The translations under genes were made by a program, and so were the position numbers. A stretch of 64,000 nt of DNA from a phage: sequence record PX104380.1; one strand, written 5' to 3'. Under the pieces are notes generated by a model. It ran no database searches and was not told the DNA's origin. It saw only the letters and a program-made list of their open reading frames with translations. Below, in pieces: positions 24,532 through 63,999 of the stretch; the stretch's first letter is position 1, and each line of letters starts with the position of its first letter.

Positions 24532-24552
24532 AAGGACTCCCGAAGGAGTCCT
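24521..24552 (-). terminator. Intrinsic terminator after soc
   Basis: - strand AGGACTCC-TTCG-GGAGTCCT (8-bp stem, UUCG loop) followed by TTTTTCATTTT. Confidence 0.75.
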
Positions 24553-24559
24553 TGAATTA

Positions 24560-24796
24560 TTAACCACCTATTTGTGTAGGCGTAAACATTGCAGCATTCT
24601 TAGTTTTCCAAGTTGCTGCATCAGAAACTACAGTAGAATATGCCGCCTTTTCAGAAGGAAAGGTCTGATAATGAGAATCTGCAATACGATGCTCGTTAGA
24701 ATAAATTTCAAACGGAACAGAAACTTCCATACCTTTAACTTCTTTGCCTTCACCTGCTGGATGAGTAAAGGTCTTGATGTTAACGAAACCACCCAT
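24560..24796 (-). CDS. soc: Small outer capsid protein Soc
   Basis: 78 aa; VNIKTF...HYQTFPSEKAAYSTV matches remembered Soc core. Confidence 0.85.
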   Translation of the reverse strand: MGGFVNIKTFTHPAGEGKEVKGMEVSVPFEIYSNEHRIADSHYQTFPSEKAAYSTVVSDAATWKTKNAAMFTPTQIGG

Positions 24797-24827
24797 AATA
24801 AACTCCTTTATTGTTTAATTACAAGTG

Positions 24828-24835
24828 TATTTATA
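24828..24835 (-). promoter_or_regulatory. Late promoter TATAAATA for soc
   Basis: exact T4 late consensus on - strand about 30 nt upstream of soc ATG. Confidence 0.7.
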
Positions 24836-25667
24836 ATCCATTTTCAAATCTCTTTATCATGTTTATATAATTTTCGTCAGGATAACCTAGGCTAACTGCT
24901 AGTTTTCTAAAATTGACATATTTAGGTTTGTTGTTATTAATCCATAATTCTCTAAGCTCTTTTTCATAATTCCATTTAAGTTGATTTCTGCGTGCAGTTT
25001 TGCTTAAAGTTTTTCCTTTAGCTTTTAAAGCTTTTTCAGATGACTGTTTTAATTTTTGAATATTTAAAACTTCTTCTATAGATAAATTATTTTCCTTTGA
25101 ATATCTTATGCAAAAATCTTTTACTGCGGCTATTAGGCAATTTTTGTGAGTACCTAAAATTTCTGGGTTATTTTCTTCAACTAAAATTCCCCAATATCTT
25201 CGGTAGCGAGGCATATCTCTTGAAATCCAGTCATTATACCAAAAATCAAAGTTGGAATACATGAAAGATTTTCTTTTACGAAGAGTATCTTGGTTTATCC
25301 ATTGCTCACGTTTATCAGCCCATAACTTAATAGTAAAGTCTTTTTCTGAGTCAGAAAGCTTCTTAAATTGCGAGCTATTTACTGAGGTCATTCTCTGGAA
25401 TGCATTCAGCAATCCAAATCTTCCAGTTGAACATAAGAGATAGTGAACATATATGTGTTGATATATTGGGAGATATACTCTATTCCAAGGATGTATTTTA
25501 AAATCACTATACTCAGGAAATGCGCATTTAGGAAGTATATGATGGGCTTCTGTTTTAGATTTGATGTGAGTGTTTAACTTATATTTATCTATAATTTTTA
25601 AGTACTCATCTAAAAGTTCCCATTGCGGGAACTTTTCTTTAAGAGCAGATTTGAAATTAATATCCAT
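24831..25667 (-). CDS. HNH-family homing endonuclease-like protein (Mob-like)
   Basis: about 278 aa; HNH-like core EAHHILPKCAFPEY...HPWNRVYLPIYQHIYVH; sits between 56 and soc. Confidence 0.65.
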   Translation of the reverse strand: MDINFKSALKEKFPQWELLDEYLKIIDKYKLNTHIKSKTEAHHILPKCAFPEYSDFKIHPWNRVYLPIYQHIYVHYLLCSTGRFGLLNAFQRMTSVNSSQFKKLSDSEKDFTIKLWADKREQWINQDTLRKRKSFMYSNFDFWYNDWISRDMPRYRRYWGILVEENNPEILGTHKNCLIAAVKDFCIRYSKENNLSIEEVLNIQKLKQSSEKALKAKGKTLSKTARRNQLKWNYEKELRELWINNNKPKYVNFRKLAVSLGYPDENYINMIKRFENGL

Positions 25668-26175
25668 TATCTTGACGTTCAAAATTATGCTTGTTCTTCA
25701 GATAATAAAGTTTAAAGATTTCTTCAGCAGTAAGGCCGAGACCTTGGAACATGTTCAGAACGAAATGAAGAATATCAATCATTTCGAATTTAATTTCCAA
25801 CTGGTCTTGTGGAGACAAATCAGTAATCAGAGTTTCACGACGTTCACCATGCTGCGACTTCCAAGGCTTCCATACAGCAGATGCATCTTTTTCACCATTG
25901 CTCATACCACCAAGAGAAGTCAGAAGTTCACGGAATTCATCATCAATGTAATCTTTCTGATTACGCAGCCAATCGACAACTTCACCTGCAGTAGCCAAAT
26001 CATCAGGATGACGGTTATATTCAGGTTTATCTTTAGCTAAACGAACCTGCAGAGATTTCTGCATATCAAGCATAACTTGCAGTGGGTCTTTTTCATCACC
26101 GAGAATATCCCAGTATTCATTTTGAGCTTTATCAGCACCAGCGATCAGATGACTACATTCGTTGAAATGTGGCAT
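25657..26175 (-). CDS. 56: dCTP pyrophosphatase gp56 (MazG-like)
   Basis: 172 aa; MPHFNECSHLIAGADKAQNEYWDILGDEKDPLQVMLDMQ matches remembered T4 gp56. Confidence 0.92.
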   Translation of the reverse strand: MPHFNECSHLIAGADKAQNEYWDILGDEKDPLQVMLDMQKSLQVRLAKDKPEYNRHPDDLATAGEVVDWLRNQKDYIDDEFRELLTSLGGMSNGEKDASAVWKPWKSQHGERRETLITDLSPQDQLEIKFEMIDILHFVLNMFQGLGLTAEEIFKLYYLKNKHNFERQDNGY

Positions 26176-26218
26176 GTTATTTTTCCTTTCAATTCATGGG
26201 TTAGTAGATTAATTATAC

Positions 26219-26226
26219 AATAAATA
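26219..26226 (+). promoter_or_regulatory. Late-promoter-like box AATAAATA upstream of the + strand small ORF
   Basis: same architecture as upstream of holin t: box, about 12 nt, AAGGAGG, ATG. Confidence 0.35.
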
Positions 26227-26248
26227 TATAAAGCAATAAGGAGGACAT

Positions 26249-26449
26249 ATGGTACAAAAATTAATGGCACTTGTTAATGCCATAAAAGGTAATAAAAAAC
26301 GTATAGCTTTTACTATTTCTGCTATGGTAGGAATTTTACTCTGGAACTTTATTTTATCACCTGTTGCAATTGCACATGGTGTTAATATTCCAGTAGTTAC
26401 TCTTGATACATTTGTAGATTTAGCATTTGCTTTAGTTGGGTTAATTTAA
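26249..26449 (+). CDS. Small hydrophobic protein (66 aa), only + strand gene inside the - strand block
   Basis: strong SD AAGGAGG 5 nt before ATG; hydrophobic segments; convergent with gene 61. Confidence 0.55.
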   Translation: MVQKLMALVNAIKGNKKRIAFTISAMVGILLWNFILSPVAIAHGVNIPVVTLDTFVDLAFALVGLI

Positions 26450-27474
26450 ATCTTAGCATATTTAGATAACCGCATTTTAGCCATTAACCCCTGGGCAATA
26501 TTATTTTTCATATATTCCATAATTTGTTCAGGGGTTGCACCTTCCTTTCTAATCATATCATTAACATCTTTTGATTTCCAGGGAGATTTATCCCAAAACA
26601 TAACCCTTTCTCCTGCATCAACTAATTTAGTCATTCGCTTGATAGTGTCAGGATGACGAGGTTCATTATCTAAAACCCACACTCGTCTATCTTTAAATGG
26701 AACAACTTCTAGGTCTAATTGACCACCCGTAATAGCTATACCATTTTCAATGAAAAGGGAATCGATAGGTCCTTCTAGAACATATACATCGCCATCTTTA
26801 ACTCGTTCAACTCCATAGATTTTTGTTGCCTCAGGATAAGCTTTAATGGTGATATATTTTTGAGGAGCATCTTTCTTTAATGCGCGTCCTTGAAAAGACT
26901 CAGCCTTTCCGTCAGCATTATAAATTGGAATAACAAGACGAGGCTCAGAAATTTCCTTTTTGTATGTTCCCGGTGCGATGCTATTAACTAATTTAGGCCA
27001 TTCGGTTGTAAACCAAAGATATTTCCATTTATCCTTTGGAATACAACGAGCTTTTACATATTTTATAATTGGATGGTCTTCCGCCAGTTTATCTAATCTA
27101 ACACATGACGGAAGAGATTTAATTATTTTCTTCTCAGGTTGTTTAGGAAGTTCTTTAGGTTTTTCTACTGAACGACTTTTACCTTTTTCTTTTCTTATTT
27201 CAAAGATATACTCACGATATAAATCAGGTTCAAACTCCTTTAAATATATTCCGATTGGTGCATGATAGTTACAGTTATAACAATGAATATTTCCTTCATT
27301 ATTATCACCATAATACCATCCACGGGCTTTATTCTGGTCGGTTTTTGAATCTCCACAAACTGGGCATCTAAACCGTAATTTAAAAGTTGAACTATTATTT
27401 ACTTGTGTGAATTTAGGTAAATGAGCTAATGCACGGTATGCAAACTCATTATCAATCCAAGGTATTGATGACAT
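26446..27474 (-). CDS. 61: DNA primase gp61
   Basis: 342 aa; zinc ribbon CPVCGDSK...CYNC, TOPRIM EGPIDSL; N-terminus as T4 gp61. Confidence 0.95.
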   Translation of the reverse strand: MSSIPWIDNEFAYRALAHLPKFTQVNNSSTFKLRFRCPVCGDSKTDQNKARGWYYGDNNEGNIHCYNCNYHAPIGIYLKEFEPDLYREYIFEIRKEKGKSRSVEKPKELPKQPEKKIIKSLPSCVRLDKLAEDHPIIKYVKARCIPKDKWKYLWFTTEWPKLVNSIAPGTYKKEISEPRLVIPIYNADGKAESFQGRALKKDAPQKYITIKAYPEATKIYGVERVKDGDVYVLEGPIDSLFIENGIAITGGQLDLEVVPFKDRRVWVLDNEPRHPDTIKRMTKLVDAGERVMFWDKSPWKSKDVNDMIRKEGATPEQIMEYMKNNIAQGLMAKMRLSKYAKI

Positions 27475-39913: not shown

Positions 39914-40600
39914 TTAAAAATCGTGGGTAGAATCAGCTTCAAGAGCTACTACATAATTCGCGTGTTCACCTTCAAATTTAGCAGCACCTTGTTTACCTTT
40001 TGCCCAGAGCAGAAGTTTATAATTTCCTGGTTGCATTTTCATATTTGCCATATTGATAATGAAATTAAATGTATTTTCACCATCATAATCACCAAGAGTC
40101 AAAGAATATTTAACACGTGTCAGAGCAGAATCTTCTACTTTATTAAAACCGTTAATTACGATTTTACCTTCTTTTACCGTGATAGCAATTGTATCAATTT
40201 GCAGACCACGAGATACACGCAACAGTTGTTGAAGGTCTTCAGCTTTAATTTCAGTAACAACAGATGCTACCGGGAATGGAATTGGTTTATTAGGAGCAAC
40301 TACTGTACTCGGATCGGCTGCTGGCCAAAAAATTGTTGAACGGGCATCAGCAATTTTAATATTTCCATCTTCTGACTGGGAAATTTCTGCATCATCATTA
40401 ACTAGAGACAGAATACCGAGAAAACCGTTCAAATCGTAAATTGCTACATCAAAATCAATAGTGTCAGAAATATTTGCTTCCGCATAAGTTGTACCATTAA
40501 CTGCGCGAGTCATAATAAATTGACCGGATTTAAGCATAATACCGGAGTTAATAGTAGCGAAATTTTTCAAAATATTCAGTGTGTCTTTAGATAATTTCAT
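39914..40600 (-). CDS. 45: Sliding clamp gp45
   Basis: 228 aa; [64 protein letters not shown]. Confidence 0.95.
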   Translation of the reverse strand: MKLSKDTLNILKNFATINSGIMLKSGQFIMTRAVNGTTYAEANISDTIDFDVAIYDLNGFLGILSLVNDDAEISQSEDGNIKIADARSTIFWPAADPSTVVAPNKPIPFPVASVVTEIKAEDLQQLLRVSRGLQIDTIAITVKEGKIVINGFNKVEDSALTRVKYSLTLGDYDGENTFNFIINMANMKMQPGNYKLLLWAKGKQGAAKFEGEHANYVVALEADSTHDF

Positions 40601-41484
40601 TTCAATTTCCTATTTACATAATAGTTAGACCAGGACCGTACAGCACCCTGATAAGATTCGTCGTTAAACCCATTAGCTACTGCAATTTTACGAAATTTAT
40701 TATAACTCGGTTTTCCGTAAGCATGCCATAAAGATTTTAATTCATCTTCATGTTCAATCCAAGTTCCTCTAGCTTTAGATTTTCTAAATTTTGATTTGAA
40801 TTCCGGTGAATTATTTCTAACAGTTGCTTGAATTGAAGCTCTCTGTCTTCTTTCAGCATTATTCCATAACTCTTTTTGAGATTTAGAAATTTTTGATTTT
40901 ACACTTTCTGAATTCATTATATCACTAAACTTTTTAGCATAACTGCAATCAAGATATTTCAATTTCATCTTATTTGAAAGTTTAAGCTTTTTCTCATCGG
41001 TCCAGTGATTCTTCATTGAATTAGATATTTTGTATTTTACGTCAGAACTATGTTTGTAACCTTTACGAATACCAACATAATCGGGCGTAATTTCAGATTG
41101 CGAAAGCTTTACAATTTTTCCAGTTAAAACATTTTTATATGTTCCATATCCTTTAGCGCCAATTAAAGTATTTTCATCTGCGTATGCTTTATTAAAATAT
41201 TTTATATTACTTTTTGCTTTAACTTTTAATTGAAAAAATCTTTCCAATTTTCTTGGATCTAATATAGTTTCAGCTAAAATTTTGACGGTATATTTAGTGG
41301 TTTTAATAAGCTCAAAATATTCATCGCTATAACTCGATGACACGCTTCCAGTATAAATCTTTCCAGCTGAATCAATTATATTTGTTCCATCGAAAATTGC
41401 GTCAATTTTCGAACCTATATAATAACATGGAAAAATATTTTTAGCTTCCCGCTCTGGAAAGCTAATAAGATATACTAAATTCAT
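40597..41484 (-). CDS. GIY-YIG-like (Seg-type) homing endonuclease candidate between 45 and rpbA
   Basis: 295 aa; N-terminal VYLISF...YYIGSK resembles GIY-YIG; C-terminal module shared with two other endonuclease-like ORFs. Confidence 0.5.
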
Positions 41485-61620: not shown

Positions 61621-62340
61621 TTAGGATTCTTCTAAATGTCTTTTCTGAAAAGTTGATACCATACTACGATACGGTTCATTTGGATACCCGTGTTTTATAG
61701 CTTCCTTTGTAAATTTTCTCCATCCATATTTAGTTTCTTTCCAAAGCTCGAATAATTCATCTTCATACTGCCATATAGTTAAATGAGAACGCTTTGCAGC
61801 TTTAATTCCATTAATATGCTTTTCTTTTACTACAGGATTGCTTAGTTTCTTTTTAATAATATTACTAACTTTTCTAACAAAAACTGGGTCCTTATATCGT
61901 TGCGAAGTTTTTATTGAAGTGTTTAATTTAGCTTCCGGTGTGGATGTGACCTCTTTCATCTTTTTCTTCATATGCTGTATATGATTAGGATTTTTCCATA
62001 AATTTATAGAATGCTTTTTGCATTTTATCCTAGTTTCATCTGCAACCTTTCCTCCTTCACCTCCGTATGACAGGTTAACACAGTTTTTTCCATATTTCAA
62101 TTTACCTGCCATGATATATAATATTTCAGCTTGTACCATTTTATCATAATTATCAAAAACTTCTAAAACCGTTTTTGATAATATGTGGTCATTTGACACT
62201 TTTACACGTTCTATATAATTTCCACTACCAACATACGAATCATTGATGTTATTAGTTATATGTCGACCATAATAGTATTTCTTAATACCTGTCTTTAAAT
62301 TTAATATTTCAGTTTTATAGATAGTAAAATATTTTTTCAT
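61621..62340 (-). CDS. GIY-YIG (Seg-like) homing endonuclease candidate
   Basis: 239 aa; N-terminal YFTIYKTEILN...YYYGRH...YVGSG; C-terminal module shared with ORFs at 24831 and 40597. Confidence 0.6.
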   Translation of the reverse strand: MKKYFTIYKTEILNLKTGIKKYYYGRHITNNINDSYVGSGNYIERVKVSNDHILSKTVLEVFDNYDKMVQAEILYIMAGKLKYGKNCVNLSYGGEGGKVADETRIKCKKHSINLWKNPNHIQHMKKKMKEVTSTPEAKLNTSIKTSQRYKDPVFVRKVSNIIKKKLSNPVVKEKHINGIKAAKRSHLTIWQYEDELFELWKETKYGWRKFTKEAIKHGYPNEPYRSMVSTFQKRHLEES

Positions 62341-63305
62341 TTTAATAATACCGTTTCAGCAATTTCTTCCCAATGATTTTTGTCGGTCATAATAAAGTCA
62401 GCAAGATAAAGAGCAGTACGCAGTGAAACATTGCGTAAACGATTAACATTGACTTTCATCCATGATAATGCTTTATAAGTTTCTTCATCAGAAAGACCGC
62501 GCTTTTGCATCATGTCAGTTGAAAGAATAACATCTTCAACCCTGACCATAATTTCTTCATTAGTGTGAACACCCAAATCCAAATAAACTGAGCGGGACAC
62601 TAATGCTTGTAAATGTGGAGCAAGTTTAGTACCACGGTCTAATTCGCGGTCAATGTCAACGTTTGTGATAAAAACAATCGTTCCTTTAAATTCAAACTCA
62701 CGCTCAATGCCTTTTTCTTCTAAGTAAGAAGATGCGGTGCTCCAGCAGACTTTACGGGTCTCTCCAGTGTCCAGAGCAGCTTTCAGAAGATTAAGAATGT
62801 CCATATCAGAGAAAACATCCACATCATCAATCAAAAGGACAGAATTCTCTTCACGATTATTCCAAAGCTGTTCATAAAGACCGATACCAGAGATTTTACC
62901 ATTAATGCTTTTATACTCAATGTATCCAATATCATTTGCTTTATTTAAAGCTTTATCTAAAGAATACGTTTTACCAATACCCGCCGCGCCAGAGATAATT
63001 AATGAACGAATGTTTCCGTTAATAATACCATTCGTCATCATTCCCATAACATTAAATCTTTTATTAATGCGGGTTTTCATATCTTCATACGATTCTTTAA
63101 CTTCTTCAACTTTTACACCATCATATGAAATGTCTGATTTGTAAACCCAAACACCGCGACGTTTACCGTCAATTTCAACAAAAACTTTACCATCTCCTTG
63201 TGCATCTACTGGAGCATTATCAGGGAACCACTCACCTAAGAGTTCAAAGGTTCCAGAGATTTCTTTGCCAAAGTAAATACCCTTATTGATAGTTACAGTT
63301 TTCAT
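62337..63305 (-). CDS. P-loop NTPase (AAA-like)
   Basis: 322 aa from ATG 63305; Walker A GAAGIGKT, Walker B LLIDDVD; track extension reads through a terminator hairpin. Confidence 0.55.
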   Translation of the reverse strand: MKTVTINKGIYFGKEISGTFELLGEWFPDNAPVDAQGDGKVFVEIDGKRRGVWVYKSDISYDGVKVEEVKESYEDMKTRINKRFNVMGMMTNGIINGNIRSLIISGAAGIGKTYSLDKALNKANDIGYIEYKSINGKISGIGLYEQLWNNREENSVLLIDDVDVFSDMDILNLLKAALDTGETRKVCWSTASSYLEEKGIEREFEFKGTIVFITNVDIDRELDRGTKLAPHLQALVSRSVYLDLGVHTNEEIMVRVEDVILSTDMMQKRGLSDEETYKALSWMKVNVNRLRNVSLRTALYLADFIMTDKNHWEEIAETVLLK

Positions 63306-63333
63306 TTTATTCTCCAAATCTGTATCAGTTGAT

Positions 63334-63390
63334 AGTTGTATAGTACCATAAAGCTTTATGCTTGTAAACAACTTTGTGAAAAATTTTTGA
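63334..63390 (-). promoter_or_regulatory. Early promoter module
   Basis: GTTTAC (63364-63369), 18-bp spacer, TGGTACTAT (63340-63348). Confidence 0.6.
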
Positions 63391-63419
63391 AATAAAAAAA
63401 GGGAGCCCGAAGGCTCCCT
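63391..63419 (-). terminator. Intrinsic terminator
   Basis: - strand GGGAGCC-TTCG-GGCTCCC followed by TTTTTTTATTT. Confidence 0.75.
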
Positions 63420-63420
63420 A

Positions 63421-63999
63421 TCATTTATAATAACTTCGATGGTTTTCAAGATAGACCTTCTCAAGGAAGTCATCCCAGAAACTCATATCTACCTTATCAG
63501 GCATACCGTTCTTAGAAGCTTCAGTAGATGCTGCTTCTACTTGATCAACCACATCTTCCAAAAACTCTTGAACTGTTTTAAATGGATGTTTACCCAGCTT
63601 CACGTCGAGAATAAATGGAGCATCTTGAAGTGGATAAATTAAGTCGCCAGTTTTGTAAATTTCCAATAGTTGGAGTCCACCACGACAAGCATGACTCAAA
63701 GCTTTCCAGTCAATGCCTTCATTGGCTTCGGCTTTACGAGCACGTTCACCGTATTCAGCATCTAATTTGTTCAGTGACTGCTTAAGCTCAATAAGAGAAA
63801 GCGTTGTCTGATATTTACGACCCAACACAGTGTAGAACGTTTGTGGGCCTGTTTTCTCATGATTATGGAACACCCATTCACAGAATTCGTTTTCTGGAAG
63901 ACGATGCTTAATATCTTCAATTTTAGTGCGACGTTGTCCTTGTGTTCCATCTTCTCGGTAGACATTCCGTTGATCAGGAATTTGATTAATTACTTTCAA
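63421..63999 (-). CDS. Hypothetical protein, probably N-terminally truncated by window edge
   Basis: ORF runs to window end; the first codon is TTG. Confidence 0.45.
   Translation of the reverse strand: MKVINQIPDQRNVYREDGTQGQRRTKIEDIKHRLPENEFCEWVFHNHEKTGPQTFYTVLGRKYQTTLSLIELKQSLNKLDAEYGERARKAEANEGIDWKALSHACRGGLQLLEIYKTGDLIYPLQDAPFILDVKLGKHPFKTVQEFLEDVVDQVEAASTEASKNGMPDKVDMSFWDDFLEKVYLENHRSYYK

Follow-up and report, generated by a model that had tools for sequence, protein, structure and literature searches.

What occupies the interval between soc and gene 56 in T4-like phages, and how have unrelated nuclease genes come to stand in the same slot there? The question is raised by a 64,000-nucleotide stretch of sequence record PX104380.1 (the window), which is DNA of a T4-like phage (Tequatrovirus) with its closest match in Escherichia phage Ec_O157kw, 95.8% over 24 kb. 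In the window, the whole gene 56-soc interval is filled by one free-standing open reading frame (ORF) of 278 codons plus a TAA stop (24831-25667, minus strand), which begins with ATG and has the same orientation as both neighbours. This ORF probably belongs to the T4 Mob family as a functional homing endonuclease gene. Its predicted architecture is MobD-like: an HNH (beta-beta-alpha-metal) nuclease domain at the N-terminus is joined by a helical linker to three helices at the C-terminus, a module that would bind DNA.

The nuclease domain comprises residues 1-125 (25293-25667, minus strand), as supported by motif conservation, hhalign comparison, an AlphaFold2 model, and matches to Mob hidden Markov models (HMMs), and it encloses a predicted beta-beta-alpha core at residues 36-82 (25422-25562, minus strand) that holds H42, H43, N62, H71, and H75. 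When 118 relatives are aligned, every column varies except these five and that of P46, and the motif is spaced HH-x18-N-x8-H-x3-H; the N-x8-H-x3-H portion is presumably the spacing of the colicin-type HNH motif. In the AlphaFold2 model of the domain (predicted local distance difference test score, pLDDT, 96.5; predicted template modelling score 0.88), a strand at residues 39-43 and another at 63-67 are followed by a helix at 68-81. H43 closes the first strand, N62 stands just before the second, and H71 and H75 lie on the helix that follows.

Homology leads from this domain to recognized HNH proteins. An exhaustive HMMER search retrieved 774 relatives of the ORF protein, compared with 3-6 from a word-indexed protein search. 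Among T4 proteins, the N-terminal-domain HMM finds MobD (E 2e-18), MobC (E 2e-15), and MobB (E 4e-15), of which MobB and MobC exceed the gathering threshold of the Pfam HNH model PF01844 and MobD, at 18.1 bits, falls below it. Three relatives of the classic HHIIPKCLGGSDD..N..EH..AH type (P0049, P0056, and P0147) also pass the PF01844 cut-off. When a Mob-type profile was compared by hhalign with six classic HNH relatives, three of which pass PF01844, the two aligned at 99.45% probability (E 4e-22), with the motif residues matched one to one. In addition, residues 17-105 of the ORF match phrog_12434, an 'HNH endonuclease' family (E 4e-10). The N-terminus is assigned with confidence as a Mob-family HNH domain.

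Several results weigh against this reading. A Pfam scan of the ORF protein gave no family at E ≤ 1, and an NCBIfam scan gave no match. Pfam HNH models matched none of 61 close relatives, whose only Pfam matches are NUMOD3, I-HmuI_NUMOD-like, and DUF7487, and sequence and profile searches of the PDB with the ORF protein returned chance matches only, with no related solved structure. The match to phrog_655, a 'homing endonuclease' family (E 2.6e-32), was dropped as proof of an HNH domain; that family is heterogeneous, also taking in a GIY-YIG-type ORF of the window (E 3e-32), so that membership alone is no proof of the fold, and of the two PHROG matches only that to phrog_12434 was given weight. 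Three fold searches returned helical proteins only, with no HNH structure among the matches listed, an outcome that neither confirms the fold nor amounts to a negative. The failure of the Pfam model likely reflects the loop from strand 1 to the Asn (FPEY...WN), which is about 5 residues longer in the subfamily to which the ORF belongs. The earlier note on this DNA, which was made from the sequence without database searches, had called the gene HNH-type; direct Pfam and NCBIfam matches do not bear this out, but the phrog_12434 match, the profile-profile link to relatives that pass PF01844, and the invariant HH-N-H-H residues do. The direct database results, together with the fold searches, could be taken to mean that the domain is no HNH nuclease and that its His/Asn pattern is coincidental. 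This is extremely unlikely in view of the strong chain of homology to Pfam-validated HNH proteins and the position of the invariant residues on a confidently predicted beta-beta-alpha element.

The other end of the protein is formed by a module of about 50-55 residues (225-278; 24834-24995, minus strand), modelled at pLDDT >95 as three helices (residues 230-244, 250-259, and 268-277) and following roughly the pattern HW.YYDELY.LW..N.KPKY..F.KIAVS.GYPD..Y..M...F. No Pfam model covers it. The module occurs one to three times per protein both in Mob-type HNH proteins and in proteins with SegF-like GIY-YIG N-termini; the GIY-YIG proteins P0006, P0010, P0017, P0018, P0023, P0024, and P0029 carry two to three copies each. 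Its HMM recovers the window ORF (E 2e-27), T4 MobD (E 6e-22), and the C-terminus of T4 SegF (E about 9e-07). The module is presumed to be a DNA-binding unit common to the Mob (HNH) and Seg (GIY-YIG) endonucleases.

The same module is found in two further ORFs of the window. One, of 295 residues (40597-41484, minus strand), lies directly upstream of gene 45 (39914-40600), has a GIY-YIG-like N-terminus (VYLISF...YYIGSK), matches the module HMM at E 1.5e-16 as well as phrog_655 and phrog_7504 ('homing endonuclease'), and appears to be another free-standing endonuclease gene. The other is a SegF-like GIY-YIG ORF of 239 residues (61621-62340, minus strand; phrog_314, E 1.8e-30; module, E 4.9e-16) that overlaps the stop of an upstream 378-residue ORF (62337-63473, phrog_1250). 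Counted with the ORF at soc/56, these would make three endonuclease genes in the window, drawn from two nuclease families and joined by one common module.

None of the five copies of the ORF that were compared is disrupted, and the gene is under purifying selection, with a ratio of nonsynonymous to synonymous substitution rates (dN/dS) of 0.05-0.14 overall. Against Salmonella phage KM16, the only comparison made by region, dN/dS again lies between 0.05 and 0.14 in each of three regions, the C-terminal module being the most constrained (0.05) and the N-terminal domain giving 0.14. Purifying selection proves function, not nuclease activity, and the greater constraint on the C-terminal module would suit a domesticated or catalytically dead relative with a DNA-binding or regulatory role, for example at oriA/gene 56 or in soc expression; old T4 records even name the segF ORF 'replication protein (g69)'. 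Such a role is nonetheless very unlikely to be the explanation. All catalytic-motif residues are retained and invariant, the N-terminal domain is constrained too, the gene is missing from most relatives and is hence dispensable to the phage, and near-identical copies scattered sporadically through diverged backgrounds are the signature of active homing.

How the gene is fitted between its neighbours bears on how it would be expressed and kept. Upstream lies gene 56, which encodes the dCTPase/dUTPase (25657-26175, minus strand; phrog_173, E 8e-47; Pfam dUTPase_2), and downstream lies soc, for the small outer capsid protein (24560-24796, minus strand; Pfam Soc, E 1e-19; phrog_1715, E 5e-41). The ATG of the ORF, at 25667, is 11 nt inside gene 56, so that the two genes overlap by the 11 nt AATGGATATTAA (25657-25667, minus strand); the earlier note had placed the ORF between soc and gene 56 with its start inside the 3' end of the latter, and this holds to the base. 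No Shine-Dalgarno sequence is visible ahead of the ATG, and translational coupling or reinitiation is therefore presumed. A scan for consensus promoters, itself weak evidence, lists no site placed to serve the ORF start. The ORF listing also gives a longer form that starts at TTG 25682, which was judged less likely because GenBank records annotate the ATG and all eight endonuclease-bearing alleles examined have it. An ATG is missing from this position in four of five endonuclease-free alleles, SQ17 being the exception.

Within the 5' coding region of the ORF, 21 nt past the gene 56 stop, is a hairpin, AAAAGUUCCC-GCAAU-GGGAACUUUU (25612-25636, minus strand), with a fold energy of -17.9 kcal/mol (z -4.4). 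The record of phage fPS-2 annotates a terminator at the homologous place. A simple terminator scan did not call the window hairpin because its U-run pairs with the upstream A-run, and the structure is likely to be a weak intrinsic terminator or attenuator.

At the other end of the gene, the TAA stop (24833-24831) falls in the middle of TATAAATA, the T4-type late-promoter box for soc (24828-24835, minus strand). Read from 24835 to 24828, the box spans the last sense codon of the ORF, its stop, and 3 nt beyond. The claim that the 3' end of the ORF contains the soc late promoter therefore holds for the overlap, now seen at base resolution, but not for containment, as the box straddles the end of the ORF and is not wholly inside it. 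The box lies 31 nt upstream of the soc ATG, with the soc Shine-Dalgarno sequence AAGGAG at 24804-24809. It is the only such box near soc, and its position upstream of that gene is kept in every allele examined (T4, fPS-2, Nami, 4E10, and others). The 64-kb window holds only two copies of TATAAATA, compared with about 10 expected from dinucleotide-preserving shuffles, a scarcity consistent with avoidance of spurious late promoters in an early-gene region.

In other phages, the same interval holds different things. In T4 itself, the interval is occupied by segF, a GIY-YIG endonuclease gene that likewise overlaps gene 56 by 11 nt; the earlier note had named segF for this locus, and the T4 sequence bears it out. 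Comparison of the interval across phages found several alternative occupants and at least five allele types. Beside segF and the Mob-like gene, these are a pair of small ORFs, soc.1/soc.2 (the T2 type, in T2 and Nami; named in PMC5931544), one small ORF in 4E10, and essentially nothing in SQ17 (Mosigvirus) and LH2. The locus is matched by 777 records, and the interval lengths in a spread sample of these fall into the same allele classes. A Mob-like gene of ≥80% protein identity stands at the site in about 31 of the 777, and segF (≥60% identity) is found in about 61. The soc/56 locus is thus a genuine polymorphic hotspot. The view of it as a homing-endonuclease hotspot with family replacement, put forward in the earlier note, gains support from the number of allele types, the identical start and stop codons of the two endonuclease genes, and a gene 56 tail that is 97% identical between T4 and the window, against 63% just upstream.

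Two observations on relatives of this locus may be added. In Klebsiella phage Phi_KR8 (PP442064.1, 12773-13605), the Mob-like ORF is matched by tblastn in two pieces, which suggests a frameshift, either in a decaying copy or through sequencing error. In some relatives, a second Mob-family HNH gene (216 residues; phrog_655, E 4e-59; NUMOD3) lies directly upstream of gene 56, as in fPS-2 (g030c, L001 3178-3828), LH2 (L005 1307-1957), and Mexia (L011 1-191). Gene 56 of fPS-2 is consequently flanked by endonuclease genes on both sides; the window has no such upstream gene.

The history of the Mob-like gene can be read from its identity to the window sequence in other phages, set beside that of its neighbours. 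In Citrobacter phage PhiZZ23, the endonuclease gene is 97.5% identical, gene 56 72.8%, and soc 97.0%. The corresponding figures are 97.7, 77.4, and 66.4% for Klebsiella phage SmallBear and 91.4, 79.3, and 65.6% for KM16 (Moonvirus). Identity of 97-98% in the endonuclease gene where gene 56 reaches only 73-77% indicates that the former moved horizontally. As judged from these alignments, the gene has spread among T4-like phages of several genera, and of gene 56 no more than the final ~70 nt has travelled along. The tract of high identity sets in ~70 nt ahead of the gene 56 stop, within the universally conserved block GAAGAAATCTTTAAACTTTATTATCTGAA (EEIFKLYYLKN), and in SmallBear and KM16 it ends at the TATAAATA box.

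The 70-nt tail of gene 56 (25657-25726, minus strand) would accordingly be a natural co-conversion tract, its allele-specific part being the last ~38 nt. It is 94-97% identical to the window in PhiZZ23, SmallBear, and T4, compared with 57-70% in the 60 nt upstream. Over the final 32 nt of gene 56, the Tequatrovirus endonuclease-free alleles of T2, Nami, 4E10, and LH2 show 13 differences from it, so that the encoded protein ends in ...AENFARQDRGY rather than ...KHNFERQDNGY, and the ATG of the ORF is missing there. PhiZZ23 combines the endonuclease-linked tail with a gene 56 body of T2-like sequence, as would be expected after homing into a T2-like recipient.

Judged by their junctions, segF and the Mob-like gene stand in for each other in a single slot. 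T4 and the window are identical up to ...CAAGATAATGGATATTAA at the end of gene 56 and diverge right after it; they share 97% identity over the last 70 nt of gene 56 and 63% in the 60 nt upstream. The near-identical tail points to replacement of one cassette by the other through recombination between common flanks, and for the T4 lineage the tail data favour such an exchange. The segF alleles of Mexia and VR26 are without the Mob-allele tail, their gene 56 ends being 81 and 76% identical to the window, and would fit better with segF and the Mob-like gene having each invaded an empty soc/56 site. On that reading, their common start and stop would have arisen by convergence, since conserved flanks supply both the TAA within TATAAATA and the one ATG that can be used (from the gene 56 Asn-Gly codons AAT GGx). 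In endonuclease-free SQ17, gene 56 already has AATGG at its end, and by chance one in three reading frames would run to the TATAAATA TAA. The 97 versus 63% step between T4 and the window, on the other hand, is hard to explain without exchange at the junction, and a hairpin stands at the equivalent place in both cassettes. Independent invasion is therefore somewhat unlikely.

An exchange of nuclease domains in situ, with SegF and the ORF retaining a specially related C-terminus at this locus, was also considered and found unsupported. The module of the window ORF ranks only about 17th of 46 among matches to the SegF module, a rank that independent invasion would also accommodate, and the SegF module is a diverged generic copy with no special closeness to that of the ORF.

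A mechanism can be proposed for the spread of the Mob-like gene. The ORF would be read from gene 56 transcripts, and its expression would be kept low by the terminator-like hairpin together with coupled or reinitiated translation. When a carrier infects a cell together with a phage that does not have the gene, the enzyme would nick or cut the endonuclease-free allele, either at the 56/soc junction or in or close to the 3' end of gene 56. Repair by recombination, with the genome of the carrier as template, would then transfer to the recipient both the gene and the gene 56 tail beside it. This would be intronless homing accompanied by local marker exclusion, a process on record for SegF at soc/56 (PMC2988022, PMC2330249). 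Carriers would be protected from their own enzyme by the insertion together with the last ~38 nt of gene 56, the allele-specific part of the tail. Gene 56, the documented target of SegF, is also the probable target here.

Two further points count against this scheme. Other free-standing endonucleases cleave hundreds of base pairs from their genes (PMC2988022), and a natural tract of ~70 nt is far shorter than this usual distance; the target could lie elsewhere, or later recombination could have trimmed the tract. Moreover, soc is non-essential, so that the promoter box embedded in the end of the ORF would be at most a weak shield against deletion. Taken at face value, the short tract hints at a cleavage site nearer the gene than is usual for free-standing endonucleases. 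A bolder extension, which is rather doubtful, would have the enzyme cut within ~70 bp of its own insertion, in the polymorphic 3' tail of gene 56 or at the 56/soc junction, unlike other characterized free-standing T4 endonucleases. The tail common to T4 (with segF) and the Mob-like carriers would then be an 'immunity' haplotype, and two unrelated nucleases would compete for one target, and exclude each other from it, via variants of one common C-terminal module.

The surroundings of the locus in the window complete its description. A terminator scan places a hairpin past soc at 24532-24553. Beyond gene 56 lies the primase gene 61 (26446-27474, minus strand). Between genes 56 and 61 (26176-26449) there is no dam methyltransferase gene in the window, unlike in T4 and T2; a small plus-strand ORF (26249-26449) is found there instead, which encodes a hydrophobic protein of 66 residues in phrog_2024 (unknown function) and overlaps the end of gene 61 with its 3' end.

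Part of this picture was already available. In several genomes, the GenBank and RefSeq pipelines have named the ORF 'HNH endonuclease' or 'homing endonuclease', and replacement of one endonuclease family by another at T-even loci is known, which makes the segF/Mob case a clean and neat but unsurprising one. No paper on this gene or on segF/Mob alternation at soc/56 was found in the open-access literature. The finding leaves the current understanding of T4-like phage biology unchanged; what it adds is a natural pair of unrelated nucleases, the GIY-YIG SegF and a Mob-type HNH protein, that occupy one slot, begin and end at identical codons, and carry C-terminal modules related to each other. 'Homing products' formed in nature, such as PhiZZ23, are also available. 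The locus is a convenient one for asking how free-standing endonucleases replace one another, how near its own gene an HNH nickase must cut, and how DNA-binding modules shuffle between nuclease families. For automated phage annotation, it matters that Pfam and NCBIfam miss both the FPEY-type Mob subfamily and its C-terminal module.

Among named endonucleases, MobD is the closest T4 paralogue of the ORF protein, with 25% BLASTP identity over residues 23-274 (252 residues, E 8e-10). Both proteins fall in phrog_655, and in both a Mob-type HNH domain at the N-terminus is followed by a linker and then by the same module of ~50 residues at the C-terminus. Both genes are promoter-less cassettes that overlap the upstream gene. 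They differ in locus, mobD being at nrdC.11/mobD.1, and in the loop between strand 1 and the Asn, which is 5 residues longer in the ORF (HHILPKCAFPEYSDFKIHPWN, versus HHIIPSCIGGNDDSDN in MobD). The activity and target of MobD are listed as unknown (PMC2988022, Table 1).

SegF shares the position of the ORF, not its nuclease. The T4 gene occupies the identical slot, with the same ATG, the same 11-nt overlap with gene 56, and the same TAA inside the soc TATAAATA box, and both proteins begin with M-D-I. Its 5' coding region has a hairpin at the equivalent place, GGACGCC-GAAA-GGCGUCUUUU, which differs from that of the window. The nuclease domain of SegF is of the unrelated GIY-YIG type (phrog_314) and has no similarity to the N-terminus of the ORF, the Mob N-terminal HMM giving E 0.23 against it; Pfam and NCBIfam also miss the GIY-YIG domain of T4 SegF (L002 3110-3781). 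Across genera, SegF alleles are 63-100% identical compared with 88-99.6% for the Mob-like alleles, implying that the segF alleles are older or more diverged. SegF targets gene 56 (PMC2988022, Table 1); it cuts gene 56 of T2 and causes marker exclusion (PMC2988022, PMC2330249). The 11-bp overlap of segF with gene 56 is described as a probable means of low translation, and an intrinsic terminator is described in the 5' end of segF (PMC2988022). SegF has also been called a 'hybrid' endonuclease (PMC2988022), a description that the module match at its C-terminus fits.

The Mob genes encode HNH enzymes, of which MobA and MobE nick their targets (PMC2988022). MobE, MobA, and I-HmuI of Bacillus phage resemble the ORF protein in combining an HNH catalytic motif with a modular C-terminal DNA-binding region, and mobE is likewise free-standing, with an internal terminator and an overlap with the upstream gene (PMC2988022). 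The DNA-binding modules of I-HmuI and MobB are of the NUMOD type, unlike that of the ORF. The targets of MobE, MobA, and I-HmuI also differ (nrdB, gene 39, and the DNA polymerase gene), and nicking, demonstrated for all three, is only a predicted activity of the ORF protein. A precedent for the exchange itself is found in T4-like phages with SegH and Hef in place of mobC and mobE (Sandegren et al., 2005, as cited in PMC2988022). As described there, these are instances of the same phenomenon, endonuclease genes of different families in one intergenic slot. The loci differ, being nrdG/nrdD and nrdA/nrdB for SegH and Hef; at soc/56, an HNH gene is found where a GIY-YIG gene was known.

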